From the NCBI GenBank assembly GCA_964576525.1, contig CAZNVH010000087.1:8914-72913 (forward strand): DNA of 64,000 nt. Direction: 5' to 3'. Below, in pieces: positions 30,600-64,000 of the stretch. The stretch is from an uncultured Enterobacteriaceae bacterium. GTDB taxonomy: Bacteria > Pseudomonadota > Gammaproteobacteria > Burkholderiales > SG8-39. The notes below the pieces were generated by a model that was given only the letters and a program-made list of their open reading frames with translations, was not told where the DNA came from and did not search any database. Position 1 is the stretch's first letter. Each line of letters starts with the position of its first letter. The translations under genes were made by a program, and so were the position numbers.

Positions 30600-30611
30600 T
30601 ACACTCGCGGG

Positions 30612-36307: not shown

Positions 36308-36317
36308 AATCGCATCC

Positions 36318-40517: not shown

Positions 40518-40528
40518 GGAATTCCCTC

Positions 40529-41182: not shown

Positions 41183-41185
41183 CGC

Positions 41186-48466: not shown

Positions 48467-49426
48467 GTGCGTTACCGGAAACTGGGCCGCTCCGGCCTCT
48501 CGGTGTCCGAGGTCGGCTTCGGCGCCTGGGGCATCGGCGGCAACAAGGACGGCGCGGTCGCCTACGGGCCGACCGACGAGGCGCAGTCGCTCGACGCGCT
48601 CGCCGCGGCGCGCGACGCCGGCATCAACTTCTTCGACACCGCGGATCTCTACGGCTTCGGCGAGAGCGAGCGCCTCATCGGCAGGGCCTTTTCCGGCTGC
48701 CGCGACCAGGTGGTCATCGCCAGCAAGGTCGGTATGCTGGATGCGACGGGCAAGCAGGATTTCGAGCCCGCGCGCATCGAGAAGGCGCTCGACGCCAGCT
48801 TGGCGCGGCTTCGGACCGACTATGTGGATCTCTATCAACTCCATAGCCCGTCGCTCGAGGTCCTCGAAAGCAAGCCTGCGGTCCTCCGGACGCTGGACAG
48901 GCTGCGGGAGAGAGGGAAGATTCGCTGCGTCGGCATCTCGCTGCGCGGCCCGGAGGAGGGCGCAAGAGCGCTCGCGCTCTATCCGTTCGCCGCGGTACAG
49001 GTGAACTTCAACCTGCTCGACCAGCGCCTGCTCGACCTCGGCCTCGCCGAGCTCTGCGCCGAGCGCGGCGCCGGCATCATCGCTCGCACGCCGCTTTGCT
49101 TCGGCTTCCTCACCACGAAATACTCGGCTGACGAAAAGTTCGATGCGTCGGACCATCGCAGCCGCTGGAATCCGGAGCAACGCCGCGTCTGGGCATCGGC
49201 GTATGACCTGTTCGAGAAATACAGCAAGAAGCCGGAGACGGCGGCGCAATTTGCCATCCGCTTCTGTCTCTCATTCGAAGCAGTGTCGTCCGTGATTCCC
49301 GGCATGCTCACCCGCGAGCACGTCGCGGAGAACAGCGTCGCCGGCGGTACGCCGATGCTCGGCGCGCCGGAGACGAGCCGCATCCGCGACATCTACAAAT
49401 CGAACCGCTTTTTTGTCGGACGCTGA
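48467..49426 (+). CDS. Aldo/keto reductase
   Basis: The GTG lies immediately after the upstream TAG. YRKLGRSGLSVSEVGFGAWGIGG...FFDTADLYG.GESE...DLYQLHSP shows the AKR signatures. Confidence 0.85.
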   Translation: MRYRKLGRSGLSVSEVGFGAWGIGGNKDGAVAYGPTDEAQSLDALAAARDAGINFFDTADLYGFGESERLIGRAFSGCRDQVVIASKVGMLDATGKQDFEPARIEKALDASLARLRTDYVDLYQLHSPSLEVLESKPAVLRTLDRLRERGKIRCVGISLRGPEEGARALALYPFAAVQVNFNLLDQRLLDLGLAELCAERGAGIIARTPLCFGFLTTKYSADEKFDASDHRSRWNPEQRRVWASAYDLFEKYSKKPETAAQFAIRFCLSFEAVSSVIPGMLTREHVAENSVAGGTPMLGAPETSRIRDIYKSNRFFVGR

Positions 49427-49427
49427 C

Positions 49428-50384
49428 ATGCTGTTCAAGGACAAGCGCATCCTCGTCGCCGGTGCCACCGGGCTGATCGGCAGCCACCTGCTGGCGCGCC
49501 TGCTCGCCGAGGGCGCGCGGGTGCGGGCCACGCACTGGAAGCGCGACCTGCCCATCCAGCATGCGTCGCTCGAGTCGATGCGCGTCGATCTGACGCAGGG
49601 CGACGACTGCCGCAAGGCAGTGCGCGACATGGAGTGGGTGTTCCTTTGCGCCGCCAGTACCTCCGGCGCGCATACCATCGCCTCGACGCCGATGGTGCAC
49701 GTGACGCCGAACGTGCTCATCAACTCGCAGATGCTGGAGGCGGCCTACGAATCGGGCGTGGCCAAGTTCATGTGGCTCTCCAGCACGGTCGCCTACCCGC
49801 CGAGCGACAAGCCGATGCGCGAGGAGCAGATGTTCGAGGGCGAGCCGTTCGAAAAGTACTATTTCGCCGGCTGGACCAAGCGCTTCACCGAGATCCTGTG
49901 CCGCATGTACGGCGAGAAGCTGGCGCGGCGCATGACCACCATCGTGCTGCGGCCGACCAACGTCTACGGGCCGAACGACGACTTCGAGTTCGCCACCTCC
50001 CACGTCATCCCGGCGCTGATCCGCAAGATCGTCGAGCGCTGGGACCCGATCGAGGTGTGGGGCGACGGCAGCGAGGTGCGCGACGCGATCTACGTCGACG
50101 ACATGGTCGAGGCGATGGTGCTCGCCGCGCAGCGGCTGCAGAGCTACGACGCGGTGAACGTGGGCCTCGGGCGTGGCTACAGCGTGAATGAGATCCTGAA
50201 GATGCTGCTCGAGCTCGACAGTTACGAGAATGCACGCATCGTCTACGATCGGTCGAAACCGACCATGATCCCCATCCGCCTGATCGACACCGCCAAGGCC
50301 GAACGCGTGCTCGGCTTCAAGGCCAAGGTCGACCTGCGGGAGGGGCTGCGCCGCACACTCGATTGGTATCGGAAGCAGCGATGA
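49428..50384 (+). CDS. NAD(P)-dependent epimerase/reductase, GDP-L-fucose synthase / ColC-like SDR
   Basis: MLFKDKRILVAGATGLIGSHL...WLSSTVAYP...YYFAGWTKRF...VLRPTNVYGPND. The start was chosen at ATG 49428, 1 nt after the AKR stop. TTG 49413 is an alternative. Confidence 0.7.
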   Translation: MLFKDKRILVAGATGLIGSHLLARLLAEGARVRATHWKRDLPIQHASLESMRVDLTQGDDCRKAVRDMEWVFLCAASTSGAHTIASTPMVHVTPNVLINSQMLEAAYESGVAKFMWLSSTVAYPPSDKPMREEQMFEGEPFEKYYFAGWTKRFTEILCRMYGEKLARRMTTIVLRPTNVYGPNDDFEFATSHVIPALIRKIVERWDPIEVWGDGSEVRDAIYVDDMVEAMVLAAQRLQSYDAVNVGLGRGYSVNEILKMLLELDSYENARIVYDRSKPTMIPIRLIDTAKAERVLGFKAKVDLREGLRRTLDWYRKQR

Positions 50385-50917
50385 TCAAGCCCTGGAAAGT
50401 GCTGAAGCGCAGGCCCGTGTACCGCGCCGATCCCTGGCTCGCGGTCGAGCGTCAGGAGGTGGAACTGCCCGACGGCCGCGTCGTCGCCGACTACCACCGC
50501 ATTACGCTGCCCGACTGCGCCGGCGTGGTGGTGCAACGCGAGGATGGTCGCTTCCTCGTCGCGCGCCAGTACCGCCATGGACTCGGCCGCGTCAGCCTGA
50601 CCCTGCCCGGTGGCAGCCTGAACCCGGGGGAATCGCCGCTTGCAGGCGCCAAGCGGGAGCTGCGCGAAGAGACCGGCTATGAGGCGCCGTCCTGGAAGCC
50701 GCTTGGCAGCTTCGTCATGAACGCGAACTACGGCTGCGGCACGATGCATTTCTTCCTCGCCTCGGGAGCGCAGCCGGCGATGGCGGCGAACAACGACGAT
50801 CTCGAAGAGAGCGAGCTGGTATTTCTCACCCGGGACGAATTGCGCGCTGCGATCGGCAGCGGCGAGGTCGCGGCGCTGGCGGCGGTCGCCGCAATCCTGC
50901 TCGCTCTCAGCCCATGA
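50381..50917 (+). CDS. Nudix hydrolase (nucleotide-sugar hydrolase type, Gmm/WcaH-like position)
   Basis: Complete Nudix box GGSLNPGESPLAGAKRELREETGY. ATGA overlap with the upstream SDR gene. Confidence 0.8.
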   Translation: MIKPWKVLKRRPVYRADPWLAVERQEVELPDGRVVADYHRITLPDCAGVVVQREDGRFLVARQYRHGLGRVSLTLPGGSLNPGESPLAGAKRELREETGYEAPSWKPLGSFVMNANYGCGTMHFFLASGAQPAMAANNDDLEESELVFLTRDELRAAIGSGEVAALAAVAAILLALSP

Positions 50918-51527
50918 AGCCGACGAGCATGTAGCGCGGCTCGCGCGCGAATGGCGCGACCGGCGTGACGAGGTGCGGCGGTCGCGTCTTGCCGTGATTG
51001 AGAACGACTAGCTGGTTGAACTTCGGCAACGCCGGCGTCATTACCTCATCCTCGACTGTCATGAGGATGCCGCCCCAGTCCCACTTCCAGTTCTTGCTCA
51101 GGTAGTAGATGAAGCCCACCGGACCCGCGTAGTCGTCGATGTGGACACGGAACTGGTCGCCCTCTGTCATCTTGTAGGCGCGCAAGTCCACCTTGTCGGA
51201 CTTGTTGCCCGAAAGATCCTCGAGCATCGGCCGAATGTGATTGGCGTAGATGCCAGTGATCGCCGGATTGCTTTCCAGCCAGCGCGACCGCCAGAAGCTC
51301 GCTATGTAGACCTCGCCGGGCTCGGGCAGGAAAGGCGAGTTGGTGCGAAACACGTGCTCGTAGTGATGCTTGCGTTCCTGGCGGATGTGGTCGTATTCGG
51401 CGGTCTGGTAGAGAGCGCGCGCGCTTTCAGCGACGCTGGCCGGCAGGGCCTCCTCGATGATCACCGTGCCCTGCTGTTGGAACTGCCGGCGGCGCGCGTC
51501 ACCCCGGATCGGCATCGGTTCGGACAT
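50907..51527 (-). CDS. 2-oxoglutarate/Fe(II)-dependent oxygenase-like protein
   Basis: ...DQFRVHIDDYAG (HxD)...WKWDWGGIL...NQLVVLNHGKTRPPHLVTPV is consistent with a 2OG-Fe(II) jelly-roll. The start at ATG 51527 gives MSEPMPIRG. Confidence 0.55.
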   Translation of the reverse strand: MSEPMPIRGDARRRQFQQQGTVIIEEALPASVAESARALYQTAEYDHIRQERKHHYEHVFRTNSPFLPEPGEVYIASFWRSRWLESNPAITGIYANHIRPMLEDLSGNKSDKVDLRAYKMTEGDQFRVHIDDYAGPVGFIYYLSKNWKWDWGGILMTVEDEVMTPALPKFNQLVVLNHGKTRPPHLVTPVAPFAREPRYMLVGFMG

Positions 51528-51565: not shown

Positions 51566-52702
51566 CTACACCTGACCTAAGCGCGCGATTGCCTGCCAGG
51601 TCGCGCGCGCGGTTTCGTCCCAGTCGAAGCGCTGCGAGTGGCGCGCGGCTGCTGCGCCGAGGCGCTCGCGGGTGCTGGGCTCGCGCAGCAGCCGCAGGAG
51701 CAGGTGCGCGAGCTCGGCGTCGTCCGCCGGATCGAAGTATTCCACTGCGTCGCCGCCGAACTCGGGCATTGGCGGCCGGCGCGAGCAGGCGATCGGCTTG
51801 CCCGCTGCCATCGCCTCGAGCAGCGCGTTCGGGCAGTTCTCCGCTTCGGAAGCGAAGACCACGGCGAGCGCGTGGTGGTACGCGGCCGGAAGCTCGTCGT
51901 AGGGTGTGTTGCCGGTGATTGTCACCCGCGGGCCGATGCCCAGGCGCGCGATCTCCCCGCGCACCCGGCGGGCGTAGGAAGTGTTGTCCGGGCCGACGAG
52001 GAGCAGGGCGAGCGGACCCTGCCACTCCCTGAGCGCGCGTGCGAATGCACGCACCACCTCGAGCTGGGCCTTGTAGGGCTCGAAGCTTGAGACGTAGAGA
52101 ATGTAGGGCTCGCGCGGCAGCCAGCCGGGGCGCGGCGCGCGCGCGGCGGACGCAGGCCGAAACACTTCGCTAATGCCGTGCGGAATGGTGACCGCATGCA
52201 GCAGCGGCCGTCCCGCGCGCTGCTCGATGAGCCCGCGGGCGTAATCGGAGAGGAAGATCACCAAGTCGGCCTCGAGCATACTTCGCAACATTACGCGCTC
52301 GAGCAGCCAGTTGCGCACGCGCTGCCAGCCCAGCGGGTACTTCGCGCGCGCGGCGCGATCGAACGGGATCACATTGCGGAACATCGTCACGCGCCGGCAG
52401 CCCGGCGGCGCGGTGCTGCCGACCACGCCGCCAGGAAAGAAAAGCACCGACGCCCCCAGCTCCGCCGCTTGCCGGCGAAGGAAGATTTTCTCCGATGCCG
52501 CCCGCAGAAGCGCATTGCCCGTCGGCCAGATTGCTTCGATCGGGCGTACACGCTCGCTCGCTACCTTCCCGCTCACCTCGGGCGGCGCGAGCAGGTGGAT
52601 CGTCGCCGGCTCCCCCGGCGGCAGGCGCGTGAGGAGGTTGAGAAGGTAGGTCTGGCCGCCGCCCTGCCGCGCGGACAGCGCGTCGATCAGCATCACGCTC
52701 AT
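51566..52702 (-). CDS. Glycosyltransferase family 4 (GT-B)
   Basis: MSVMLIDALSARQGGGQTYLLNLL...YILYVSSFEPYKA...SEAENCPNALLEAMAAGKPIACS is the E-x7-E region. ATGA overlap with asnB-like. Confidence 0.75.
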   Translation of the reverse strand: MSVMLIDALSARQGGGQTYLLNLLTRLPPGEPATIHLLAPPEVSGKVASERVRPIEAIWPTGNALLRAASEKIFLRRQAAELGASVLFFPGGVVGSTAPPGCRRVTMFRNVIPFDRAARAKYPLGWQRVRNWLLERVMLRSMLEADLVIFLSDYARGLIEQRAGRPLLHAVTIPHGISEVFRPASAARAPRPGWLPREPYILYVSSFEPYKAQLEVVRAFARALREWQGPLALLLVGPDNTSYARRVRGEIARLGIGPRVTITGNTPYDELPAAYHHALAVVFASEAENCPNALLEAMAAGKPIACSRRPPMPEFGGDAVEYFDPADDAELAHLLLRLLREPSTRERLGAAAARHSQRFDWDETARATWQAIARLGQV

Positions 52703-54534
52703 GCGAAGGGATGCAGCATCAGCACTGCCCAGAGGAGGGGATGCGTGTCGCGCCGGCCCGAAAGGTGCAGCGCGAACAGCTCCTGCATGCGGCGCCGGTC
52801 GAGGGGAAAGCGCTCGTAGAGCCGCCGGTCCTCGAGCCGCTCGCGCGCCCAGTCGCGCAGCGGCCCGCGCAGCCAGCGGTCGATCGGCACGGTGAAGCCC
52901 TGCTTCGGGCGCTCGACGATCTCGCGTGGCAGCAGGCGATAGGCGAGGCGCCGCAGCAGGTACTTGCCCTCGCCGCTGCGCAGCTTCCAGGCGAGCGGCA
53001 GGCGCTGGCTCCACTCGACCAGCTCGTGATCGAGGAGCGGCTCGCGCGCCTCGAGCGAGTAGGCCATGCTGGAGACGTCGGTCTTCTGCAGGTACTCCTC
53101 GGGCAGGATGTGCGTGAGATCGAGCCGCATCGCGCGTTCCGCCGCCGACAGGCTCTCGGGCATGCGCTTGAGCGAGTGCGCGAAGACCTGGTCCAGGTCG
53201 AGTCGCGGCCTCACTTCCGGGGCGAGCACGCTACCGAAATCCTTCGAGATGCTGCGCATCAAGCGGAATGCCTTCAGGGGCCCGCTTTCCGCCAGCGCCG
53301 CCCCGAGCAGGCGCAAGCGGTGCGAGGGCGCAAGCGCCAGCGCGCCGGCGACGCCGCGCCGCAGCGCCGCCGGCAGCCGGAAAGCTGGCGCGATGCGCTT
53401 GAGGATAGCGTAGTAGTGGTAGCCCCCGAACAGCTCGTCGCCGCCGTCGCCGCCAAGCGCGACGGTGACCTGGCGCCGCGCCAGCCGCGATACCGCCAGC
53501 GCGGGGAACGCCGAGCTGTCGAAGAACGGCTCGTCGAACTGCTCGTGAAAGGACGGCACTAGGGCGAGGAGGTCGTCGACCGACAGGATCTCCTGCCGGT
53601 GTTCGGTGCCGAGGGCGCGCGCTACCTTCGCGGCGTGCGCGCTCTCGTCGTACTGCGGCTCGCGAAAGCCGATGGTGAAGGTCTTCACCGGCCCGCTCGC
53701 GAGGCGTGCCATCATCGCAACGACCACCGAGCTGTCGATGCCGCCCGAGAGAAAGGCACCGAGCGGTACGTCGGCGATGAGGCGCGAGCGCACGCTGCGT
53801 TCGACCAGTACTTCCAGTTCGTCGAGGAGATCGTTCTCGGAACGCCCTCGCCATGCGGCGATCGGCTCAATCTGGAGCGGACTCCAGTAGGGCGCGACCG
53901 TCGCGCGTCCCTCGCGGAATTCGAGCCAGTGGCCGGCAGGCAGCTTGCGGATTGAGGCGTAAAGGCCATGCGACGCCGGGAAATAGCCGCTTTCCAGGTA
54001 GAGCGCGAGCCCGTCGAGGTCGAGCGCGCTGGCGAGGCCCGGCCGGTACGCGATGAGCGCGCGCGGCCGCGACCCGAACACGATCTCGCCGCCCTCCAGG
54101 GCGTAGTAGAGCGGCTTCACCCCGAGGCGGTCGCGCGCGAGAAGCAGGCTTTTCTCCCGCCGGTCCCAGATGCCGAGCGCGAACATGCCGCGCAGCCGCT
54201 GCAGGAAGCTCTTCCCCCAGCGCCGGTAGGCCGCGAGGATGACTTCCGAGTCCGAGTCGCTGCGCCACGGTCCGTCCAGCTCGGCGCGCAGCTCGCGGAA
54301 GTTGTAGATCTCGCCGTTGTAGGCGAGGACGTAGCGCTCGTCGGCGGTGACCATCGGCAGGTGGCCCGCGCTCGACAGGTCCTGGATCGCGAGCCGGCAG
54401 TTCGCCAGCACCGCGCCCCCCTCGCTCCACACGCCGCGGTCGTCCGGACCGCGAGCGAGGATGCTGGTGATGGCGGCTTCGGCGCGCGCCGGTTCGGCGG
54501 CGCGCGTGCCGGCTGCGCCGGCGATGCCGCACAC
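52699..54534 (-). CDS. Asparagine synthase (glutamine-hydrolysing) family amidotransferase (WbpS-like)
   Basis: N-terminal nucleophile MCGIAG, ...YNGEIYNF..., and the PP-loop SGGIDSS. Confidence 0.85.
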   Translation of the reverse strand: MCGIAGAAGTRAAEPARAEAAITSILARGPDDRGVWSEGGAVLANCRLAIQDLSSAGHLPMVTADERYVLAYNGEIYNFRELRAELDGPWRSDSDSEVILAAYRRWGKSFLQRLRGMFALGIWDRREKSLLLARDRLGVKPLYYALEGGEIVFGSRPRALIAYRPGLASALDLDGLALYLESGYFPASHGLYASIRKLPAGHWLEFREGRATVAPYWSPLQIEPIAAWRGRSENDLLDELEVLVERSVRSRLIADVPLGAFLSGGIDSSVVVAMMARLASGPVKTFTIGFREPQYDESAHAAKVARALGTEHRQEILSVDDLLALVPSFHEQFDEPFFDSSAFPALAVSRLARRQVTVALGGDGGDELFGGYHYYAILKRIAPAFRLPAALRRGVAGALALAPSHRLRLLGAALAESGPLKAFRLMRSISKDFGSVLAPEVRPRLDLDQVFAHSLKRMPESLSAAERAMRLDLTHILPEEYLQKTDVSSMAYSLEAREPLLDHELVEWSQRLPLAWKLRSGEGKYLLRRLAYRLLPREIVERPKQGFTVPIDRWLRGPLRDWARERLEDRRLYERFPLDRRRMQELFALHLSGRRDTHPLLWAVLMLHPFA

Positions 54535-54536
54535 GG

Positions 54537-55490
54537 CTAAGCGGCCGGGCGTCTGCCGCGCCCGACGATGCCGTTATAGCCGTTGAAGGCTTCGACCGAA
54601 ACGAAGCCTGCTTCCTCGAACCAGCGGCGCACCTCGCGCGCGGACTGCGGCTTGTCATAGGCCGGCGCGTACATGTCGAAGGTGTCGAGCACCGCCCAGT
54701 CGCGGTTCTGCTCGGGCGTGAGGCCGAGATGCGAATACTCGACGATCGGCGAGAGCCGCGCGCCGACGCGGCCCGCGACGCTGCGCAGGAACCGTGTCGG
54801 CGCCACGAGCGGCGGTGTGAGACGCTCGACGATGCGATAAAGCTTTTCCGGATTCATCGATCGGGTGAGCGGCCGCAGCAGGTATTTCCAGTGCATCAGC
54901 GCGGCGAGAGAACGGCGGTACACGTCGATCACCAGGTCGCCGCCGGGCTTCACGTGCCTTGCGAGACTGCGGAAGGCGCGCCCGGGATCGGGCGTGTGCT
55001 GCAGCACGCCGAGGCAGAGCACGTGATCGAACCAGGCCTCAGGCAGCGGAATGGCGAAGATGTCGCCCTGGAACAGCCGCAGCTTGGGCGAGCCGCCGTG
55101 ATTGCCGGCGTTGGCGTCGACCGCGTTGGAGTAGTCGAACGAATAGACGGTCGCGCCGGTGCGGCAGAGGATCTCGGTGAAGCGGCCGGCCCCCGAGCCC
55201 GACTCGAGGATGCGTGCTGCGGGCATGGCGCGTGGCCAGCCCGTCGTCTCGAACAGGCGCCTTTCCGAGATCGGCTTGCCGACCGAGCTGTCGAGCTGGG
55301 TGCGCGGGTGCCGGTTCCACTGCAGGCCGAACGAGGCGCTGTAGTTCTCGCGCGCCGCGAAGCGCGGAATGCCGCGCTCCACGGGATACGCGGCGCCGCA
55401 TTTCGCGCAGCGCAGCGCCTGCGCCGCCTCGGCGAGCGGCGCGCGGCAGGCCGGACAGACGTAGTCAGCGGCGAGCGGCGATCTTTCCAT
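54537..55490 (-). CDS. Class I SAM-dependent methyltransferase with N-terminal Trm112-like zinc ribbon
   Basis: CPACRAPL...RCAKCGAAYPVERGIPRF is the zinc ribbon. Motif I is ILESGSGAGRF. Confidence 0.8.
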   Translation of the reverse strand: MERSPLAADYVCPACRAPLAEAAQALRCAKCGAAYPVERGIPRFAARENYSASFGLQWNRHPRTQLDSSVGKPISERRLFETTGWPRAMPAARILESGSGAGRFTEILCRTGATVYSFDYSNAVDANAGNHGGSPKLRLFQGDIFAIPLPEAWFDHVLCLGVLQHTPDPGRAFRSLARHVKPGGDLVIDVYRRSLAALMHWKYLLRPLTRSMNPEKLYRIVERLTPPLVAPTRFLRSVAGRVGARLSPIVEYSHLGLTPEQNRDWAVLDTFDMYAPAYDKPQSAREVRRWFEEAGFVSVEAFNGYNGIVGRGRRPAA

Positions 55491-57198
55491 CGGCGACTTC
55501 GTAGACGAGATCGCAATCGCGCAGCGTCGCCGGGCGGTGCGAGATGATGAGCAGGGTCTTGCGATGCGACAGGCTGCGGATCGCCTCCAGTACCGCCTGC
55601 TCGGTCTCCTGGTCGAGCGCGCTCGTCGCTTCGTCGAAGATCAGCACCTCGGGGTCGCGGTAGAGCGCACGGGCGATGACCAGGCGCTGGCGCTGGCCGC
55701 CGGACAGGCGCACGCCGCGCTCGCCGACCACGGTGTCGTAGCCTTGCGGCAGGCCGGCAATGAAGTCGTGGATGTTGGCGGCGCCCGCTGCGCGCTCGAC
55801 CTGCGCCTGCGAGATGGCCTCGTCGCCGACGCCGAAGGCGATGTTGCGCGAGATCGTGTCGTCCAGCAGAAAGAGCGTCTGCGGGACATAGCCGATACGG
55901 CTGCGCCACGCCGGCGCGAGTTCGCCAGTGAGCCGAGTGCCGTTCAGGCGGATCTCGCCCGCGGCGGGCTCGATCAGCCCGGCGATGAGATCGATCACCG
56001 TGCTCTTGCCGGCGCCGGTGGCGCCGACCAGGCCGACCGTCGAGCGCCGCGGAATCTGCATGTCGGCTTGCTCGACGACCGGCTTCGCCGTCCCGGGATA
56101 CTGGTAGGTCACGCCGTGCAAGCTGATCGGGGGCTGCAACTGCGCCGCGAGGGCCGTCAAGGTCGCCGCCGGCGGTGACCCGGTCGTCGGCTGTGCCAGC
56201 AGCTCAGCGAGCGTGGCGGCCACCGCGGAGTTCTGCTGCACGATGATCGCGTTGGCGAAAATTTGTTGCAGCTGCGGCAGCAGCCGGTAGGCGGCGAAGA
56301 GGTAGAAGCCGAGCAGCGGCGCCGCGGCCTGCCAGCCTCCGGCACCGCCGCTCAGGTAGAGCGCGAGAACCAGCACGGCGGCGAACGCCGCGGTCTCGAT
56401 CAGGTACCGGGGCAGAACGCTCACCTTCACTGCGTACTCGTACTGCTCCGCCAGCGCGCGCGCCGCCTGGCCGAAGTTGTCGGAAAAATGCGGCCCGCAG
56501 TCGAGCATGCGCAGCTCGCGAATTCCGGCGATGGTCTCGGTGGTGATGCGGCTGATGCGCTCGCGTGCCTGGAAGGCGAGATCGCCGCTCCGGCGGATGC
56601 GTCCCTGCAGGCGGCGATAGACGGCGAGATACACGCCGGCCAGCGCCATGAACGAGACGAGGGCGAGCACGGGATCGACCGCGAGCACGAGAAGCGCGAC
56701 GGCCACCGCGACCACCACGCGCGCCGCCACGATGAGCAACGGCATGAGCAGCGACGCCGACAGGCGCTCGGTCTCGTAGACGATGTTCTTCACGATGGCG
56801 GAGGAGTGCGCGCTGAAGAAGTACTCGTAGGGTTTGCCCAGGTAGGCCCCGAGCGCACAGACGGCGATGCGTTGCCACACCGCCCAGGTGAGCCGCGCCG
56901 AGAACCAGGTGACGCAGAAGGCGAGCAGGTTGCTGAGGGCGATGAGGCCGAGCGCGAGGAAGGCGAGCACGTAGGGATTGCGGCTCGGCAGCAGGCTCGC
57001 GCAGGCGGCCCCCGCGGTCTGGCCGAGCTTGCCGCAAGGGTCGTCCGCCGAGGTGAGGACCGCGACGAGCGGCACGACCGAGAGCACGCCGCTCACCTCG
57101 ATCGCGCCGGAGACGAGCATCAGGGCCGCGAGCCAGGCCGAGCGGGTCTTTTCCGCCGGGTCGAGCAGGCGCCAGAGCTGGGCGATCGTGCGCGTCAC
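55465..57198 (-). CDS. Fused TMD-NBD ABC exporter (type I exporter fold; PglK/MsbA-like)
   Basis: The GTG start (GTGA overlap) gives VTRTIAQLWRLLDPAEK. Six predicted TM helices, Walker A GATGAGKST, signature LSGGQRQR, Walker B LIFDEATSALD. Confidence 0.85.
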   Translation of the reverse strand: MTRTIAQLWRLLDPAEKTRSAWLAALMLVSGAIEVSGVLSVVPLVAVLTSADDPCGKLGQTAGAACASLLPSRNPYVLAFLALGLIALSNLLAFCVTWFSARLTWAVWQRIAVCALGAYLGKPYEYFFSAHSSAIVKNIVYETERLSASLLMPLLIVAARVVVAVAVALLVLAVDPVLALVSFMALAGVYLAVYRRLQGRIRRSGDLAFQARERISRITTETIAGIRELRMLDCGPHFSDNFGQAARALAEQYEYAVKVSVLPRYLIETAAFAAVLVLALYLSGGAGGWQAAAPLLGFYLFAAYRLLPQLQQIFANAIIVQQNSAVAATLAELLAQPTTGSPPAATLTALAAQLQPPISLHGVTYQYPGTAKPVVEQADMQIPRRSTVGLVGATGAGKSTVIDLIAGLIEPAAGEIRLNGTRLTGELAPAWRSRIGYVPQTLFLLDDTISRNIAFGVGDEAISQAQVERAAGAANIHDFIAGLPQGYDTVVGERGVRLSGGQRQRLVIARALYRDPEVLIFDEATSALDQETEQAVLEAIRSLSHRKTLLIISHRPATLRDCDLVYEVADGKIAARR

Positions 57199-58385
57199 GT
57201 GCGCCGCAACCCCGCGACAAGCCCATCTCTGAAGCCTCCCAGGAGGCCACGCCAGTACGACACGCGCCACAACCATTCCGTGACGATCTCGCGTAACGCC
57301 CGGATAGGTGAGCCGCGGTGCAGGGCGTGAAGGACTGCCACTCCCCTGGATCTCCCCATGCTCTCATAGAAGAACGGGCCACGAAATTCCGACTGCACGG
57401 TCGGAGCGCGTTGGTCGCGCATAGCCAGGATATCGGCGAACAGCCGTGTGAACTGAACTTCGGGCGTGAGCTCGGCGCGATATCTTCGATGTGCCTCGGC
57501 CGAGATCCGCCTGCGAAGGTTGTCGTCGCCAAGATACTTTCGTGTTTGAACGAGCAGGTCATGCGCGTCCCGGAACACGCCGATGTCGATGCCAGGTCGG
57601 AACCAGTGCTCCACACATGGCGCCCACTCGCAAAGGCAAAACCGCCCTAGGGCCGCAAGCTCGAAAGGCCGTCCTTTGATTTGCGCCACGCGGGCGCGCT
57701 CTGGGTTATGGCGGAGGATCCATGCAGGAGGATTCGTCGCGGTGAAATTGAGGTTGATCCTGCTTCGTCTGAAAACATCTACAACCCCCGCATCAGATAG
57801 ACGTCCGTTACGGCTGCCGGCGCCGTAGTCAGCGATTTGAATGCCATTGCTTTCGAGGTGATGTACGTAGTCACGCCTGCCTGGCTTGCTGATGTCGCCC
57901 ACGAAGGAAACGTCAATATCCTCGGCGGCGGTGTTAAGCCCACCGTTCACATGAGGTTGCTGCAACTGGGCGACATAGGCCGGTACGCCCGCGCGTTTGA
58001 GCCATTCGGCTCCGGCTATGTCCGATGTGATCACGGCGCTGCAGGACTGATAAAAAAACTTGCTCTGATCAAAGTAGATTTCGTCATCAAAGCCGAATCC
58101 GACGACGGTCGCCCGCCGCTTTAGGCTGGAAACGAATTCCGGCGTGAGATAGGAGAAGCTGTTGGGAAACTGCGTGTAGATAACGATGTCCGGACCAGCC
58201 CCATCAATTCCCCTCGCCACCTGTCTCTGCGCCGCTCTGGGCCCCTCGGACAGGTACAGAGCGCGGTAGTCCAACACCTCGAACCTGCGGAATAGCTTGA
58301 GGAAGAACTCAGCGTAACGCCTGAAGACGGGATGGTCGCCAGGTTGTAGCCACATCGCGCTCGCTTCAACCAAACCAACTGTCAC
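57195..58385 (-). CDS. CgeB-like glycosyltransferase (Glyco_trans_1_2-type C-domain), paralog A (divergent, lower GC)
   Basis: ...DIDVSFVGD...VFRRSRINLNFTATN...IKGRPFELAALGRFCLCEWAPCVEHWFRPGIDIGVFRDAHDLLVQTRKYL... is homologous to the three upstream genes. The GTG start (GTGA overlap) gives VTVGLVEAS, aligning with MNFVVLEAQ of paralog D. Confidence 0.6.
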   Translation of the reverse strand: MTVGLVEASAMWLQPGDHPVFRRYAEFFLKLFRRFEVLDYRALYLSEGPRAAQRQVARGIDGAGPDIVIYTQFPNSFSYLTPEFVSSLKRRATVVGFGFDDEIYFDQSKFFYQSCSAVITSDIAGAEWLKRAGVPAYVAQLQQPHVNGGLNTAAEDIDVSFVGDISKPGRRDYVHHLESNGIQIADYGAGSRNGRLSDAGVVDVFRRSRINLNFTATNPPAWILRHNPERARVAQIKGRPFELAALGRFCLCEWAPCVEHWFRPGIDIGVFRDAHDLLVQTRKYLGDDNLRRRISAEAHRRYRAELTPEVQFTRLFADILAMRDQRAPTVQSEFRGPFFYESMGRSRGVAVLHALHRGSPIRALREIVTEWLWRVSYWRGLLGGFRDGLVAGLRRT

Positions 58386-59629
58386 CGGACACCTTTCAGC
58401 CGGCGACGGAAGTACACGACTACCGTGGCTACCAACGCCGCTGCTCGCGAACGACCGCGTGCGCCGTGCAGCCCCGCGCCGGCGAAGGCGATCGCCGCCG
58501 ACGGCGTGAAGCGCCCGGTGCGCGCGAGCAGGCCGAGCTCGTCGAGCAACAGGCGCAGCCGTCCCGTGAAGAGGAAGACCACGAGGTACTTGAAACGCCA
58601 CGCACCGAACGCCGAGAGGAACGGGCGGTCGAGGTAGAGCGGCAGGCGCCGCGCGGCGCGTTTCCTCGCCGCCCGCAGCCGCAGGGTCTCCGCCATCGAG
58701 GTCCAGAACTTCGCCTCGTCGTACTGCGCCAGCGCCCGCTGGTAGGCGCGCGCGGCCATCGCTTCGCGCTCTGTTTCCCGTGCAAGATAGTGACGCGCCT
58801 TCGCGACCAGGTCGCGCTCGTCGCGAAACACGTCGATCTCGTGCCCTACCTCGAACAGCATCTCGATCCCGGGGGCGTGCTCCGAGAGCACGAACGACCC
58901 GCACAGGGCGATCTTCGAGCAGCGCCCCTTGACTTGCCGCACCCGCCGGTGGATCGACAGGTGACGGTCAAGCGGCGTGGCGACGTTGCCGGCGGTAAAG
59001 TTGAGGTTGATGCGCGAGCGCCGGTAGATGTCGATGACTTCGGCCTGCCCGACGATGCCGGCCGGCGTCCCGGCGCCGAACAGCGAAACGGCGATACCCG
59101 CGCTCTCGAGCGCGCGCGCGTAGCCTTCGCGGCCGACCTTGCCGCGCATGGCGCCGATGAACGAAACGTCGATGTCCTTGCGCGGCTGCGGAGCCGGATG
59201 GAACAGCGCCGGGCTGAATACGTTCGGCAGGAACAGAGCGTCGATCCCGTAGAGGCGGTAGCGCTCGCACAGCGGGTTGTTGGTGAGCACCAGGTCGAAG
59301 CACTGGGCGTAGTAACGATGCGAGACGTCGAAGTAGTACTCGTCGTCGCCCAGGATGAGGACGCGGTACAGGTGCGCCAGGTCATCGTGGAGGAAGGCGG
59401 GGCGGAAATCGAATTCGATGCCGAGCCCGTAGATCAGCATCTCGACCTGTCTTTCGCGCACCAGCACGAGCAGTGCCTGCTCCAGGCCTTTCATTCCCCG
59501 TTCGCGGTACACCGCCTCGGGATCCAGCCGGTGCACCACGCGGCCGCCGTAGGCTTCGACGCAGCGCGCGTAGTCGAGATCGTTGAAGCGCGCCTCGGGC
59601 GTCTCCGGTCCGAGCAATAGGACGCTCAT
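58382..59629 (-). CDS. CgeB-like glycosyltransferase, paralog B
   Basis: MSVLLLGPE...YRERGMKGLE...GDDEYYFD...CFDLVLTNNPL...DIDVSFIG...YRRSRINLNFTAGN...VKGRCSKIALCGSFVLSEHAPGIEMLFEVGHEIDVFRDERDLV...; conserved C-terminal tail FGAWRFKYLVVFLFTGRLRLL. Confidence 0.65.
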   Translation of the reverse strand: MSVLLLGPETPEARFNDLDYARCVEAYGGRVVHRLDPEAVYRERGMKGLEQALLVLVRERQVEMLIYGLGIEFDFRPAFLHDDLAHLYRVLILGDDEYYFDVSHRYYAQCFDLVLTNNPLCERYRLYGIDALFLPNVFSPALFHPAPQPRKDIDVSFIGAMRGKVGREGYARALESAGIAVSLFGAGTPAGIVGQAEVIDIYRRSRINLNFTAGNVATPLDRHLSIHRRVRQVKGRCSKIALCGSFVLSEHAPGIEMLFEVGHEIDVFRDERDLVAKARHYLARETEREAMAARAYQRALAQYDEAKFWTSMAETLRLRAARKRAARRLPLYLDRPFLSAFGAWRFKYLVVFLFTGRLRLLLDELGLLARTGRFTPSAAIAFAGAGLHGARGRSRAAALVATVVVYFRRRLKGVR

Positions 59630-60867
59630 CGCCGTCCCTTGAGCAATAGGCGCACCGCCCGCGCGACCATCGCGACGGCGGCGGCGCTCCGTGAATGCTG
59701 CCGCGCGATGTGCAGCCCTGCGGCGGCGAGCCAAGCCGCGGCGCGCGGGTTGAAGCGCCCGGCGCGCAGGAGGAGCAGCAGCTCCTCGAAGAACAGACGC
59801 AGCCGCCCTGCGAAGAAGAAGATCACCAGGTACTTGAAGCGCCAAGCGCCGAAGCCGGACCAAAACGGCGCATCGATCAGGAGCGGCAGCGCGCCCGTCC
59901 TGCCGGCCTTGTCGCGGGCACGGCCTTCGATCGCCGCCGCCATCCGTTCCCAGTACCTGGACTCCTCGTAGTACTGGAGCGCGCGTGCGTGCGCCCGCGC
60001 GGCCATCTCCTCGCGCCGCGCTTCATTGGCGAGATAGAAGCGCGCCTTGGCTACGAGCTCCTCCTCGTCCTCGAAGACATCGATCTCCTCGCCCGGCTGG
60101 AACAGCTTCTCGATCCCGGGCGCGTATTCCGACAGCACGAAGGACCCGCACAGCGCGATCTTGGTGCAGCGACCCTTGACCTGGCGGATGCGCCGCACGA
60201 TGGTCTGCTCGGAGTCGAGCGGATAGCTGCCGACCCCGGTGAAGTTGAGGTTGATGCGCGAGCGCCTATAGGTCTGCACCACCGCCTGGGTATCGAGAGG
60301 GCCGGCGGTGCTGCCCGGCCCGTGGAGCGCGACGCCGATGCCGGCGCCCTCCAGTGCCCGTACGGCGCCGTCGCGCCCGCTCTTGTTCAGCGCCGTGCCG
60401 ATGAAGGAGGCGTCGATGTCCTTCGCGACCGCGCGGTCCGGAAAGAAGCGCTCCTTGCTGAACACGCTGGGAAACATGTCGGCGTCGATGCCGTACTGGC
60501 GATAACGCTCGTGCAAGGGATTGTGGGTCAGCACCAGATCGAAGCACTGGCCGTAGTACCGGTCGGCCATGTCAAAGCCGTATTCGTCGTCGCCGGTCAT
60601 GAACACGCGATAGACATGCGCCAAGCTCTGGTGCAGGAACTGCGGCCGGAAATCGTAGCCGCCGGTCCAGTTGAGCAGCACGTCGATGGACTGCTCTTCG
60701 ACGACGCGCAGCACCTCGGATTCCAGCCCCGACATGCCGCGCTCGCGATACAGCGCGTCCGGGTCGAGTTCGTGCACGTTGCCCCAGATGCGCTGCAGCG
60801 GGCCGACGAGGTCGAGATCGGTGAACGCGAAGCCGGCCTTGTTCGGAATCATGACCAGCGCGTTCAT
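59626..60867 (-). CDS. CgeB-like glycosyltransferase, paralog C
   Basis: MNALVMIPN...YRERGMSGLE...GDDEYGFD...CFDLVLTHNPL...YRRSRINLNFTGVG...VKGRCTKIALCGSFVLSEYAPGIEKLF...; tail FGAWRFKYLVIFFFAGRLRLF. ATGA overlaps at both ends. Confidence 0.65.
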   Translation of the reverse strand: MNALVMIPNKAGFAFTDLDLVGPLQRIWGNVHELDPDALYRERGMSGLESEVLRVVEEQSIDVLLNWTGGYDFRPQFLHQSLAHVYRVFMTGDDEYGFDMADRYYGQCFDLVLTHNPLHERYRQYGIDADMFPSVFSKERFFPDRAVAKDIDASFIGTALNKSGRDGAVRALEGAGIGVALHGPGSTAGPLDTQAVVQTYRRSRINLNFTGVGSYPLDSEQTIVRRIRQVKGRCTKIALCGSFVLSEYAPGIEKLFQPGEEIDVFEDEEELVAKARFYLANEARREEMAARAHARALQYYEESRYWERMAAAIEGRARDKAGRTGALPLLIDAPFWSGFGAWRFKYLVIFFFAGRLRLFFEELLLLLRAGRFNPRAAAWLAAAGLHIARQHSRSAAAVAMVARAVRLLLKGRR

Positions 60868-62114
60868 GCGCGCCCTCCGAACATCCGGCGCAGCATCCGC
60901 GCGCTGGCCGCGACCCAGGCGGCGGGAAGCGAGCGCTGACGCGCGATGTGCAAGCCGGTGGCAGCGAACCAGGCCGCGGCCCGCAAGTTGCACGCGCCGG
61001 CGCGCGCGAGAAGGAGCAGCTCGCCCAGGAAGAGCAGCAGCCTGCCGGTGAAGAGGAAAATCATCAGGTACCTGAAGCGGCACGCGCCGTAGGAGGCCCA
61101 GAACGGCCGGTCGAGAATCAGCGGTAGGCGCGCCGGCGTGCGCTGGCGCGCGAGGGCGCGCCGTTCCAGCCGCGCGCTGACCCCCTTCCAGTACTTCGCT
61201 TCATCGTACTGCTCGACCGACCGCGCATGCGCGCGCGCGGCCATCGCCTCGCGTTCCTCGGCATTCGCCAGGTAGTGGCGCGCTTTCTCGACGAGCTCGT
61301 CGGCATCGCGGAACACGTCGATCTCACGCCCGGGTTCGAACAGCCGCTCGATCCCGGGCGCGTACTCCGACAGCACGAACGAGCCGCACAGCGCGATTTT
61401 CGAGCAGCGTCCCTTCACTTGTCGCACGCGGTCCATGATCGCGTCCTGCGGGGCAAGCGGCGAGCGAGCCGCGCCGGTGAAGTTTAGATTGATCCGCGAC
61501 TGGCGGTAGACGGCGACCGCGCCGTCGGCCGAGATCGGCCCGTTGGCCGTGCCGTAACCGTGGACGGCCACCTTGATGCCGGCGCGCTCCAGGGCGGCGA
61601 TGCCAGCCTCGCGCCCGGCCTTGCCCTTCACCGCGCCGATGAACGAGACGTCGTGGCGCTTGTCCCGGTTCTGCTCCGACGGATGGAAGACAGTGGACGG
61701 GTAGACGCTGGGGTAGTACTCGGCATCGATGAGATACTGGTGGTAGCGCTCGACCAGCGGGTTCGCCGACAGGACCAAGTCGTAGGCCTGGCCATTGTAC
61801 CGGTCGAAACGTTCGAAGTGCCCCTCGTCGTCGCCGACGATGTAGACACGGTAGCAGTCCTCCAGGCCGTAGACGAAGCGCGGGTCGAGCTCCATCCACA
61901 TGCCGAAGGCGCAGCAGACGAACACCTCGGCGCGGGTCTCGCGCACCGCCGCCGTGATCGCGGCCTCCAGGCCCGAGCTGCCCGCGCGCTCGTAGATCGC
62001 GCAGGGGTCGAGCATTTCCACCCGGTGGCCGCCGTAGGCGGCGAGGGCGCGCGAGATGCTCTGGTCGAGCAGGCGCGTGTCCTCGTTCTGGGCTTCCAGG
62101 ACGACGAAATTCAT
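60864..62114 (-). CDS. CgeB-like glycosyltransferase, paralog D
   Basis: MNFVVLEAQ...GDDEGHFE...AYDLVLSANPL...YRQSRINLNFTGAA...VKGRCSKIALCGSFVLSEYAPGIERLF...; tail YGACRFRYLMIFLFTGRLLLF. Confidence 0.65.
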   Translation of the reverse strand: MNFVVLEAQNEDTRLLDQSISRALAAYGGHRVEMLDPCAIYERAGSSGLEAAITAAVRETRAEVFVCCAFGMWMELDPRFVYGLEDCYRVYIVGDDEGHFERFDRYNGQAYDLVLSANPLVERYHQYLIDAEYYPSVYPSTVFHPSEQNRDKRHDVSFIGAVKGKAGREAGIAALERAGIKVAVHGYGTANGPISADGAVAVYRQSRINLNFTGAARSPLAPQDAIMDRVRQVKGRCSKIALCGSFVLSEYAPGIERLFEPGREIDVFRDADELVEKARHYLANAEEREAMAARAHARSVEQYDEAKYWKGVSARLERRALARQRTPARLPLILDRPFWASYGACRFRYLMIFLFTGRLLLFLGELLLLARAGACNLRAAAWFAATGLHIARQRSLPAAWVAASARMLRRMFGGRA

Positions 62115-62118
62115 GGCG

Positions 62119-63396
62119 CTACAGCCGCCAGACGGCGAAACCGGCTCCGGCGAGCTCGCGCGCGTCGAGCCGTGACTTGACGTCGACGAACACCGCGCCG
62201 CGCGCCGCCTTCTGCGCAAAATCTTTGATCGATCGATCAAGCAGCTGCCGGTGCGGCACGGCGAGCACCAGAAGCTGCGCGACAGGCAGGCTCTCCCACG
62301 CTTCCAGCTTGATGCCGTACTCGTGCTCGGCTTCCTGCGGATCGGCGACCGGGTCGTGCACGTGCACTTCGAGGCCGTGGTTGCGCAGCTCGGCGACCAG
62401 GTCGGCGACTTTCGAGTTGCGCAGGTCGGCCACGTTCTCTTTGAACGTCAAGCCGAGCACGTTGGCTCTCGAGCCGCGCACCGCGAAGCCGGCACGCGCC
62501 AGCTCCTTCACCGCCATCTCGGCGACGTAGCCCGCCATGCTGTCGTTGATGCGCCGGCCGGCGAGGATGATCTCGGGGTGGTAGCCGAGCTTTTCCGCCT
62601 TGTGCGTGAGGTAGTACGGATCGACGCCGATGCAGTGACCGCCGACGAGACCGGGGTGGAAGGGAACGAAATTCCACTTCGTGGCGGCGGCGCGCAGCAC
62701 CTCGGCGGTATCGATGCCAATGCGGTGGAAGATGATCGCCAGCTCGTTCATCAGTGCGATGTTGAGGTCGCGCTGCGTATTCTCTATCACCTTCGCCGCC
62801 TCGGCGACGCGGATCGAGGGCGCGCGGTGCACGCCGGCCTTCACCACCGAGCCATAGAGCGCCGCCACCTTGTCGAGCGTTTCGGCATCGTCGCCGGAGA
62901 CGACCTTGGTGATCTTCGAAAGAGAATGCTCCTTGTCCCCGGGATTGATGCGCTCGGGCGAGTAGCCGACGTGGAAGCCCTCGCGCCAGCGCAGTCCCGA
63001 GGCGCGCTCGAGCACCGGCACGCAGTCTTCCTCGGTGCAGCCGGGGTAGACCGTGGATTCGATCACTACGATGGCGCCGCGCTTCAGGTTCTTGCCGGCG
63101 ACCTCGCAGGCCGAGAGGAGCAGCCTTAGGTCGGGCCGGTGCGCCTCGTCGACCGGCGTCGGCACCGCGATGATGAGAACGTCGGCTTCTCTCAGCGCGG
63201 CTGGATCGCTCGTCAATTGCAGCTGTCGCGCGCCGGCGAGCTCCTGCGTCGAGACTTCGCCGGTGGCGTCGCGGCCGGATTTCAGGCGCGCGATCTTGTG
63301 CTCGTCGCGGTCGTAGCCGAGCGTCGGGCCGGCGGCGCCGAACGCCGCTGCGAGCGGCAGGCCGACGTAGCCGAGGCCGATGACGCCGACTCTCAT
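62119..63396 (-). CDS. Nucleotide-sugar 6-dehydrogenase (UDP-glucose/GDP-mannose dehydrogenase family; TviB/WbpO-like)
   Basis: MRVGVIGLGYVGLPLAAAF..., catalytic Cys region GLVGGHCIGVDPYYL. ATGA overlap with the upstream epimerase gene. Confidence 0.85.
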   Translation of the reverse strand: MRVGVIGLGYVGLPLAAAFGAAGPTLGYDRDEHKIARLKSGRDATGEVSTQELAGARQLQLTSDPAALREADVLIIAVPTPVDEAHRPDLRLLLSACEVAGKNLKRGAIVVIESTVYPGCTEEDCVPVLERASGLRWREGFHVGYSPERINPGDKEHSLSKITKVVSGDDAETLDKVAALYGSVVKAGVHRAPSIRVAEAAKVIENTQRDLNIALMNELAIIFHRIGIDTAEVLRAAATKWNFVPFHPGLVGGHCIGVDPYYLTHKAEKLGYHPEIILAGRRINDSMAGYVAEMAVKELARAGFAVRGSRANVLGLTFKENVADLRNSKVADLVAELRNHGLEVHVHDPVADPQEAEHEYGIKLEAWESLPVAQLLVLAVPHRQLLDRSIKDFAQKAARGAVFVDVKSRLDARELAGAGFAVWRL

Positions 63397-64000
63397 CGGT
63401 GGTAGTCCCGGTACCAGTCGACGAAGCGGCGCACGCCGACCTCGATCGGCGTCGAGGGCTTGAAGCCGGTCGCCGCGGCGAGTTCGGCCGTGTCGGCATA
63501 GGTGGCCGGGACATCGCCCGGCTGCAACGGCTGCAGGTCGAGGCGCGCCTTCTTCCCCAGGCAGTCCTCGAGGATGCGGATGTAGCGCATCAACTCGACC
63601 GGCTGATGGTTGCCGATGTTGTAGATGCGCCAGGGCGCGCTCGAGCTGGCACTGTCCGGCTGCTCGGCGTTCCACCGCGCATCGGGCGCCGCCGGGCGCT
63701 CGACGACGCGCGCCACACCCTCCACGATGTCGTCGATATACGTGAAGTCGCGGACCATGCGCCCCTCATTGAACACCGGCAGCGCCTCGCCGGCGAGGAT
63801 GCCGCGGGTGAACTTGAACAGCGCCATGTCTGGCCGTCCCCAGGGGCCGTACACGGTGAAAAAGCGCAAGCCCGTGCAGGGCATCCGGTAGAGATGCGCG
63901 TAGCAGTGCGCCATCAGCTCGTTCGCCTTCTTGGTCGCGGCGTAGAGCGACACCGGATGGTCGACGTTGTCGTGCTCGGAGAACGGCAGCCGCTGGTTGG
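63393..64000 (-). CDS. NAD-dependent nucleotide-sugar (UDP-glucuronate-type) 4-epimerase. C-terminal part only; the 5' end is beyond the window.
   Basis: The frame is open to the window edge: ...NQRLPFSEHDNVDHPVSLYAATKKANELMAHCYAHLYRMPCTGLRFFTVYGPWGRPDMA... (YxxxK), ending ...RFVDWYRDYHR. Confidence 0.8.
   Translation of the reverse strand, partial: NQRLPFSEHDNVDHPVSLYAATKKANELMAHCYAHLYRMPCTGLRFFTVYGPWGRPDMALFKFTRGILAGEALPVFNEGRMVRDFTYIDDIVEGVARVVERPAAPDARWNAEQPDSASSSAPWRIYNIGNHQPVELMRYIRILEDCLGKKARLDLQPLQPGDVPATYADTAELAAATGFKPSTPIEVGVRRFVDWYRDYHR

Follow-up and report, generated by a model that had tools for sequence, protein, structure and literature searches.

Proteins of the CgeB type (PF13524) are widespread in polysaccharide, lipooligosaccharide (LOS) and spore-coat loci, and have seen almost no biochemistry and no solved structure. 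For the only studied member, CgeB of Bacillus subtilis, the proposed glycosylation substrate is the crust protein CgeA; in a model built with AlphaFold 3 (AF3), catalysis is assigned to a glutamate of the CgeB N-domain and diphosphate binding to two arginines (PMC13577073). A precedent for the flipping of whole glycans by ATP-binding cassette (ABC) transporters of the MsbA/PglK/HepA type comes from Helicobacter pylori, where the entire O-antigen is built on a lipid carrier and flipped by Wzk (PMC2841628). Here we describe an array of four tandem CgeB-like genes, named D, C, B and A in order of transcription, that occupies positions 57195-62114 on the minus strand of a 64,000-nt stretch of contig CAZNVH010000087.1 (the window, meaning the whole stretch of DNA that was analysed; positions refer to it unless a related locus is named) and runs into the gene for such an exporter. 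The literature yielded no characterised example of this subfamily, as the initial annotation of the window had supposed; only B. subtilis CgeB and the unstudied Gtr proteins of Acinetobacter were found.

We judge with moderate confidence that all four proteins of the array are active GT-B transferases at the membrane periphery, that each forms its own linkage in a lipid-linked glycan containing hexosaminuronic acid, and that the coupled ABC transporter then exports this glycan, with B and A as the core of the system. The array itself is well defined. Genes D (60864-62114, 416 aa, first in the array), C (59626-60867, 413 aa) and B (58382-59629, 415 aa) encode long-type CgeB-like proteins and gene A (57195-58385, 396 aa with a GTG start) a short-type one, with PF13524 scores of 89.7, 88.2, 79.2 and 67.2 bits, respectively. 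All four open reading frames (ORFs) are intact and, by ORF calls, BLASTP and PF13524 alike, they form the four consecutive tandem paralogs that had been described at the outset. It had also been claimed that each gene overlaps the next by NTGA. This holds for the D/C and C/B junctions, both of which are ATGA overlaps, and at B/A depends on the start codon of gene A, since a GTGA overlap exists there only with the GTG at 58385. If translation begins instead at a TTG at 58373, the protein has the 392 aa usual among orthologs, an 8-nt gap separates the gene from B, and agreement with the N-terminal consensus of 45 A-type orthologs, MxxAxALWLVPG, is better; the public gene call begins at an ATG at 58355 (386 aa). 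In public data the locus is represented by contigs of 7-8 kb. On these sequence comparisons the TTG appears the most likely start. At its other end, the TGA stop of gene A overlaps the GTG start of the exporter gene (GTGA, 57195-57198), so that the exporter does lie directly downstream of the array, and the overlapping or near-abutting stop and start codons are packed tightly enough for the translational coupling suggested earlier.

This packing extends beyond the array. Upstream, the dehydrogenase stop lies 4 nt ahead of the gene D start and the epimerase/dehydrogenase junction is an ATGA overlap; downstream, the exporter and methyltransferase genes overlap by 26 nt, with 4-nt overlaps at the methyltransferase/AsnB and AsnB/GT4 junctions. 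A promoter and terminator scan of 50-64 kb gave nothing above shuffle expectation, leaving internal transcription units unsupported. Tight packing and the lack of any such site above expectation together argue for a single 11-gene operon, in the order epimerase, TviB-like dehydrogenase, D, C, B, A, ABC exporter, methyltransferase, AsnB-like amidotransferase, GT4 glycosyltransferase and 2-oxoglutarate (2OG) oxygenase.

The four proteins are glycosyltransferase-like GT-B proteins of the CgeB branch. PF13524 (Glyco_trans_1_2, CgeB type) is their sole credible Pfam match, at 67-90 bits against a cut-off of 25. PF00534, the Pfam family of CAZy GT4, has no match at E <= 1 in any of the four and PF13439 has none either, in keeping with the original assignment to the CgeB type rather than to ordinary GT4 enzymes; DUF3880, an N-terminal domain of many CgeB-type proteins that was proposed alongside PF13524 as a check, was likewise without a match at E <= 1 in A-D. 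No NCBIfam family covers them (best E 0.04). Searches of C, A and the family profiles by sequence against all PDB chains stayed at chance level (E >= 0.2), indicating that there is no solved relative, and an hhalign comparison of the family profiles with the operon's own GT4 was not significant (probability < 1%). AlphaFold2 models made from the family alignment are confident for both C (predicted local distance difference test score, pLDDT, 92.9; predicted TM-score, pTM, 0.90) and A (pLDDT 91.7, pTM 0.89). Both are complete GT-B folds, with two Rossmann-like domains, an inter-domain cleft and a C-terminal crossover helix, and in both the N-domain is a Rossmann-like GT-B half even though DUF3880 fails to match it. 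Foldseek returned 271 PDB matches at E <= 1e-3 for C and 132 for A, and nearly all of the best 50 for each model are GT-B glycosyltransferases. The best matches of C are the GT4 enzymes BshA, BA1558, GlgM and PimB' (E 2e-10 to 4e-9, TM 0.53-0.59), while those of A take in TarM, SdgB and GtfA (4pqg).

Comparison across genomes changes the picture of what constitutes the unit. Homolog searches gave cluster representatives of both types, about 65 of the long and about 60 of the A type, nearly all metagenomic and several of them auto-annotated as "spore maturation protein CgeB". A scan of GTDB-representative genomes found two close loci only, both in metagenome-assembled genomes of Burkholderiales/Betaproteobacteria, and a metagenome scan added nine further short loci. 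Using long- and short-type hidden Markov models together with called genes, we classified 17 independent loci, including the window (the others carry our L numbers). A long gene stands immediately upstream of the short gene in every one of them, and an ABC exporter directly follows the A-type gene in 15 of the 17. Three long genes and one short gene are present in the window, L003, L028 and L029; one of each in L004, L006, L008, L009, L030, L031, L033, L034, L037, L038, L080 and L081; and L035 reads long-short-long'-ABC. Thirteen loci therefore hold only the long/short pair or a variant of it, C and D appear together in the other four, and none of the 17 has just two long genes ahead of the short one. 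The four-fold array pointed out in the initial annotation is thus an elaboration and not the basic unit: what is conserved throughout is one B-type long gene with one A-type short gene, coupled to the exporter, and C and D are an optional upstream add-on pair.

The longer arrangement is itself conserved over a wide phylogenetic distance. In Candidatus Nitronereus thalassa (Nitrospirota, L003) the order is D-C-B-A-ABC-methyltransferase-(extra A-type)-AsnB-2OG-GT4, and the window proteins are 72% (D), 68% (C), 59% (B) and 56% (A) identical to their positional orthologs there. That the same arrangement turns up in an unrelated phylum indicates a genuine, working array, and the module has passed between phyla. 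In two-gene loci the ortholog of gene B is the single long gene, to which it is 56-61% identical in L004 and L006; gene A is 56-68% identical to A-type orthologs. A neighbour-joining tree groups the A-type proteins in one clade and the B-type proteins in a large one, with smaller clades for C and D; genes D and B each fall in the clade of their own type. Positional orthologs in Nitrospirota and distinct clades would together indicate purifying selection on A-D. Nitronereus also carries an additional A-type paralog between its methyltransferase and AsnB genes (L003, 16660-17934; 424 aa, 55% identical to A), a close relative of which, P0104, lies on a 187-kb contig. More distant relatives at about 30% identity, from Elusimicrobia, Deltaproteobacteria, Omnitrophica and other groups, are often paired too, either adjacent or 1.4-4.7 kb apart (L010, L013-L015, L017, L040, L041, L043, L045, L047, L054, L056-L061, L064 and L065). 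Occurrence in pairs may go back far in this branch of PF13524.

Within the window, B and C are 57.6% identical over their full length, B and D 52.6% and C and D 51.0% (BLASTP, E 1e-131 to 1e-141), and A is 32-39% identical to B, C and D over some 210-280 residues (E 1e-31 to 1e-41). Every motif block listed for the four proteins on first inspection is found in the alignment. The nucleotide-level similarity reported at the same time is also genuine: the 22-mer quoted for it is present exactly twice, at 59001-59022 and 60245-60266, against an expectation of none in shuffled sequence. With paralog identities of only 32-58%, the duplications must be ancient. Taken by part, pairwise identity among B, C and D is 40-55% in the N-domains, 56-60% in the C-domains and 54-62% in the tails. 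The N-terminal domain is the acceptor half of GT-B enzymes, and the pattern seen in the sequences is compatible with shared donor chemistry and localisation combined with recognition of different acceptors.

Gene A stands apart in composition. Over 57195-58373 its GC content is 0.59 and its GC content at third codon positions (GC3) 0.68, against GC3 values of 0.87-0.91 for B, C, D and the ABC gene, and the switches on either side are sharp and fall at the gene ends. A-type orthologs in other loci have a composition like that of their neighbours. Gene A looks like a single-gene replacement from a lower-GC donor. In L028 it is the B-type gene (6661-7953) that is low, with a GC3 of 0.65 versus 0.80-0.84 for D, C and A. 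From the two GC3 drops, single array genes have seemingly been exchanged by recombination, a process that is common in O-antigen loci.

The atypical composition of gene A might also be read as a sign of decay, with the array made up of redundant duplicates of which one copy works and the others, being recent, drift towards pseudogenes. A split C-type copy in L029 (8755-10004; ORFs of 49 and 331 aa, reflecting a frameshift or pseudogene, or else an assembly error) points the same way. We nonetheless consider this reading highly implausible. The four ORFs of the window are intact and the paralogs ancient rather than recent, the GC3 of B, C and D (0.87-0.90) is the same as that of their neighbours, and each protein falls with its own ortholog clade, with 56-72% identity and an unchanged gene order across phyla. 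Degeneracy of three of the four copies, the outcome that the initial annotation had singled out as contrary to its proposal, is therefore not what is found, and the pseudogene reading is rejected on ortholog conservation.

Conserved residues likewise argue for active enzymes. Pocket-type positions are retained in both protein types: the DDE motif of the N-domain and, in the numbering of C, R165, N206/N208, K231-G-R233, E247 and E261 are invariant or nearly so, and by analogy the catalytic scheme predicted for CgeB is consistent with the conserved positions of A-D. The two types part ways at an R-x-F-E motif at the start of a C-domain helix. Its Arg is invariant throughout. The Glu position is occupied by Glu in 43 and Asp in 2 of 45 A-type sequences, by Lys (26), Met (17) or Ile (2) in the long type (the B/C/D clade), and by Glu in 10 of 10 more distant relatives; on this distribution the loss in the long type appears derived and clade-defining. 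A gap-free 35-residue register with the operon's GT4 places the second Glu of that enzyme's EX7E motif at E232 of A and K236 of C, an equivalence that rests on the motif register together with the modelled secondary structure. At the first EX7E Glu the long type has Arg or Lys and the A type is variable, so that none of A-D has a complete EX7E motif. We take the second Glu of GT4 enzymes to bind the nucleotide ribose, as in structures such as those of PimA and WaaG. The remaining pocket residues of the long type are invariant, which favours altered nucleotide recognition over catalytic death.

The loss of this Glu from an entire clade, and its variable replacement by Lys, Met or Ile, could also mean that the array encodes an obligate hetero-oligomeric synthase, which the initial annotation had suggested beside a four-sugar repeat built by dedicated paralogs. 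In it the A-type protein would be catalytic and the long-type proteins non-catalytic or acceptor-presenting, as GtfB is for GtfA, and for assembly the helical tails would bind one another and/or the ABC exporter. Such an arrangement would be in line with the long gene standing directly before the short one in 17/17 loci and the exporter directly after it in 15/17, with the overlapping stop and start codons, with the pairing of more distant relatives, and with the presence of GtfA, SdgB and TarM among the structural matches of A. However, a pure scaffold would not be expected to retain R165, K231, R233, E247, E261 and the DDE motif, and the N-domains are the most divergent part of the long-type proteins, which is compatible with distinct acceptor specificities. 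We regard the hetero-oligomer as unlikely, though the most probable of the rival readings.

Part of that argument turns on the C-terminal tails, which the initial annotation had described as a conserved hydrophobic-basic extension of B, C and D. The three do share such a tail, at 60867-61142 in D (about 92 aa, net charge +12), 59629-59904 in C (+12, against -10 for the body of the protein) and 58385-58660 in B (+15), all on the minus strand, those of D and B as seen in a tail alignment; overall, the tails carry +12 to +15 and the rest of each protein 0 to -10. Where that description falls short is in leaving A without a tail: A-type proteins end in a conserved helical tail of a different type, modelled as three helices from residue 327 to the C-terminus and bearing the motif FYESMGRSRG..LHAL.RG.PLRAL.E...YWRGF. 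The tail of C is modelled as four helices (residues 333-353, 356-369, 374-388 and 393-412; pLDDT mostly 94-98). A profile of the three long tails, searched against 1.84 billion representative proteins, found 8 matches only; the full-length ones (411-419 aa) carry the tail at the C-terminus and the remaining 3 are fragments of 85-153 aa. The tail is thus specific to the subfamily and no reusable module, and its being no generic membrane anchor speaks for the hetero-oligomer. On the Kyte-Doolittle scale the highest-scoring 19-residue windows (1.4-2.1) come from the first two helices of the tail and include Arg and Glu. A true transmembrane anchor is unlikely given these charged residues and the packed four-helix subdomain into which the segment is modelled; from the models, a transmembrane helix is less probable than a basic, peripheral subdomain of packed helices.

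A more elaborate possibility can be drawn from the same features: a long and a short protein would form an obligate complex that docks through its basic four-helix tails onto the type-IV ABC exporter, making a combined synthase-exporter machine in which the long copies hold the acceptor or guide the chain without catalysis and their number, one or three, sets the architecture of the repeat. We consider this improbable.

The genes that flank the array give the proposed pathway its content. The exporter (55465-57198, minus strand, 577 aa; PF00664 + PF00005) is a fused protein of transmembrane domain (TMD) and nucleotide-binding domain (NBD), of the MsbA/PglK/HepA type. Its NCBIfam scores all lie below the cut-offs: 271 bits for the HepA family (cut-off 725), 262 for MsbA (602) and 230.9 for PglK NF050066 (1000). 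Upstream of gene D, also on the minus strand, is a TviB-like dehydrogenase of the uridine diphosphate (UDP)-N-acetylhexosamine 6-dehydrogenase type (62119-63396, 425 aa; NF011729 at 455 bits against a cut-off of 592, TIGR03026 at 380 bits), preceded by an NAD-dependent nucleotide-sugar epimerase that is cut by the end of the window (63393-64000, minus strand; PF01370, with weak TviC-likeness at 39 bits versus 760). The dehydrogenase is kept upstream of arrays in L004, L006, L028, L031, L033-L035, L037, L080 and L081. Downstream of the exporter, on the same strand, follow an S-adenosylmethionine (SAM)-dependent methyltransferase with an N-terminal Trm112-like zinc ribbon (54537-55490; PF08241 + PF03966), which is retained after the ABC gene in L003, L004, L006, L030, L035, L080 and L081; an AsnB-like glutamine amidotransferase (52699-54534; PF00733 + GATase; TIGR03108 at 515 bits, below cut-off), conserved in the module and a candidate uronic-acid amidating enzyme; the canonical GT4 glycosyltransferase (51566-52702; PF00534 at 90.6 bits, intact EX7E, ENCPNALLE); and, last in the operon, a 2OG-Fe(II) oxygenase (50907-51527; PF13640) with orthologs in L003 and L080. 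In L028 the place of the oxygenase is taken by a PhyH-type oxygenase and a TylF-like methyltransferase. The presence of oxygenases at the operon end suggests hydroxylation of a sugar or substituent. As a whole, the dehydrogenase-array-ABC-methyltransferase-AsnB-GT4 module recurs in at least 10 loci.

On the reading that we prefer, each of the four enzymes would use a nucleotide sugar to lengthen a lipid-linked glycan by one residue, working on the cytoplasmic side of the inner membrane. The UDP-2-acetamido-hexuronic acid made through the two upstream genes probably serves at least one of them as donor. The basic helical tail may hold the enzymes at the membrane or at an acidic glycan. The glycan would then be amidated and/or methylated, and the coupled transporter would export or flip it. 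The B and A pair would represent the ancestral core, making two linkages, and the C and D pair would extend or branch the unit.

The setting of the array also bears on a quite different role, in which A-D, like B. subtilis CgeB, would decorate a surface or secreted protein. The function proposed for CgeB and the presence of the protein O-glycosyltransferases GtfA and SdgB among the structural neighbours are its main attractions. The locus, however, is set within an LPS core/O-antigen region (LPS, lipopolysaccharide) among nucleotide-sugar pathways and an AsnB-type amidotransferase, PF00953 is found in related loci, no candidate target protein is conserved beside the array, and Acinetobacter PF13524 proteins are annotated as LOS outer-core transferases (PMC10327509). 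A protein substrate thus seems very unlikely.

Several points weigh against four active enzymes building a lipid-linked glycan. The window was found to contain neither an initiating transferase nor a ligase or oligosaccharyltransferase. All 45 long-type sequences lack the Glu of the R-x-F-E motif, and long-type copies may accordingly bind the nucleotide differently or lack catalysis. The tail of C packs so confidently in its model (pTM 0.90) that its hydrophobic helix may be buried outside the membrane. A complex would account for the strict pairing and the overlapping codons just as well. Finally, glycosyl transfer by any member is predicted from family and fold, and for B. subtilis CgeB itself the evidence is a weak in vitro band shift only (PMC13577073).

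As for the wider surroundings, the region of the window that contains the array is an LPS core/O-antigen region. A GT9 heptosyltransferase (30600-31670) marks the LPS core portion and is followed by a genuine MsbA-type ABC exporter gene (32059-34527; strong ABC_membrane match, 169 bits) and by a GT4 gene with rmlBADC (35153-39563). The window thereby holds two MsbA-fold exporters, one of them likely the housekeeping MsbA and the other coupled to the array. Next comes a minus-strand operon (39579-42178) for a HddA-like GHMP sugar kinase (136 bits, below cut-off), a nucleotidyltransferase and an NAD-dependent epimerase; the epimerase gene, at about 39579-40525, is low in GC3 and was overlooked by GC3-based gene finding. 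An unusual-sugar pathway on the plus strand (42223-50917) encodes alpha and beta thiamine pyrophosphate subunits like those of pyruvate dehydrogenase E1, a DegT aminotransferase, a 4,6-dehydratase, a KedN5-family B12-radical-SAM C-methyltransferase (288 bits), an aldo-keto reductase, an epimerase/reductase and a NUDIX hydrolase, and it probably yields a branched or C-methylated amino deoxy sugar. Radical-SAM, aldo-keto reductase and epimerase genes, with a NUDIX or GHMP kinase gene, also accompany PF13524 arrays in L003, L004, L029 and L081. The window further contains leucine-catabolism genes, phaC and priA. Its PriA shares 79-85% identity with many proteins of uncultured Burkholderiales, which places the soil-type host in that group.

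Among the genes scanned over about 36-64 kb, a survey that was not exhaustive, we saw no Wzx, Wzy, Wzm, Wzt or ABC2_membrane protein, which leaves the coupled ABC transporter as the one exporter detected in the cluster. Related loci contain a divergent operon (L006, 86-5043; L080, 1-5694) for FnlA/B/C-like enzymes, a GT4 and a PF00953 initiating transferase of the WecA/WbpL type, and a Wzx-like gene lies at the edge of L006. The PF00953 and FnlABC-like genes of these loci point to undecaprenyl-phosphate-linked assembly.

Set beside described systems, the array is an uncharacterised variation on a known theme, paralogous glycosyltransferases in a surface-polysaccharide operon, and not a new kind of system. 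It shares with B. subtilis CgeB the Pfam family (PF13524, COG4641) and the architecture of two Rossmann-like domains followed by a C-terminal helical tail, and A-D possess the conserved acidic residue of the N-domain and the two arginines that figure in the CgeB prediction (PMC13577073). It differs in size (392-416 aa, against 317 aa with a 36-residue tail in CgeB), in the basic helical subdomain of about 90 aa that is peculiar to this family, in the absence of the canonical Glu from the long type, and in its context, a Gram-negative host and an LPS/O-antigen locus with an ABC exporter rather than a spore-crust protein. The best structural matches are retaining GT4 enzymes (BshA 3mbo, BA1558 2jjm, PimA 2gej, PimB' 3oka, PglA 8dqd and GlgM 6tvp; E 1e-10 to 1e-7, TM 0.5-0.6), with which the Arg/Lys after the first C-domain strand is in register, as is, in the A type alone, the Glu at the helix N-terminus. 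Unlike GT4 enzymes, all four proteins lack the first Glu of EX7E and B, C and D also the second, and identity to the PDB matches is 8-14% among the best 50 listed for C.

The exporter resembles PglK of Campylobacter jejuni, Wzk of H. pylori and HepA of Anabaena in being a single-polypeptide TMD-NBD transporter of the MsbA fold within a glycan locus, although it scores far under the equivalog cut-offs and no ligase or oligosaccharyltransferase accompanies it in the window; unlike Wzm/Wzt, it is an ABC_membrane (type IV) protein and not an ABC-2 permease with a separate NBD that bears a carbohydrate-binding module. The combination in one operon of a TviB-like dehydrogenase, an adjacent epimerase and an AsnB-like amidotransferase, the last of which may be analogous to the amidotransferase WbpS, resembles TviB/TviC of the Vi antigen and the WbpO/WbpP/WbpS-type hexosaminuronic acid (amide) pathway of Pseudomonas aeruginosa O6. 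It departs from the Vi-antigen system in that the dehydrogenase falls below the TviB equivalog cut-off (455 versus 592 bits) and neither a TviE-type polymerase nor Vex exporter genes are present. The streptococcal GtfA/GtfB pair, an O-GlcNAc transferase of serine-rich-repeat proteins, is comparable as a GT-B paralog pair with one partner short of catalytic residues; the likeness is one of analogy only, and the long-type proteins differ in keeping most of their pocket residues.

Current models of polysaccharide synthesis are unchallenged by the array. For annotation, genes recorded as "hypothetical/CgeB-like" in uncultured Burkholderiales and Nitrospirota can be placed in a mobile, mosaic O-antigen-type module. 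More generally, the subfamily provides a clean comparative system and a reasonable biochemistry target for the neglected CgeB family, work on which would clarify CgeB-type donor binding, whether paired GT-B paralogs act as complexes, and the use of type-IV ABC exporters for surface glycans beyond the epsilonproteobacterial PglK and Wzk. Characteristic of it are the obligate pairing of long and short genes, a clade-wide Glu loss, a basic helical tail peculiar to the subfamily and tight genetic linkage with a type-IV ABC exporter.

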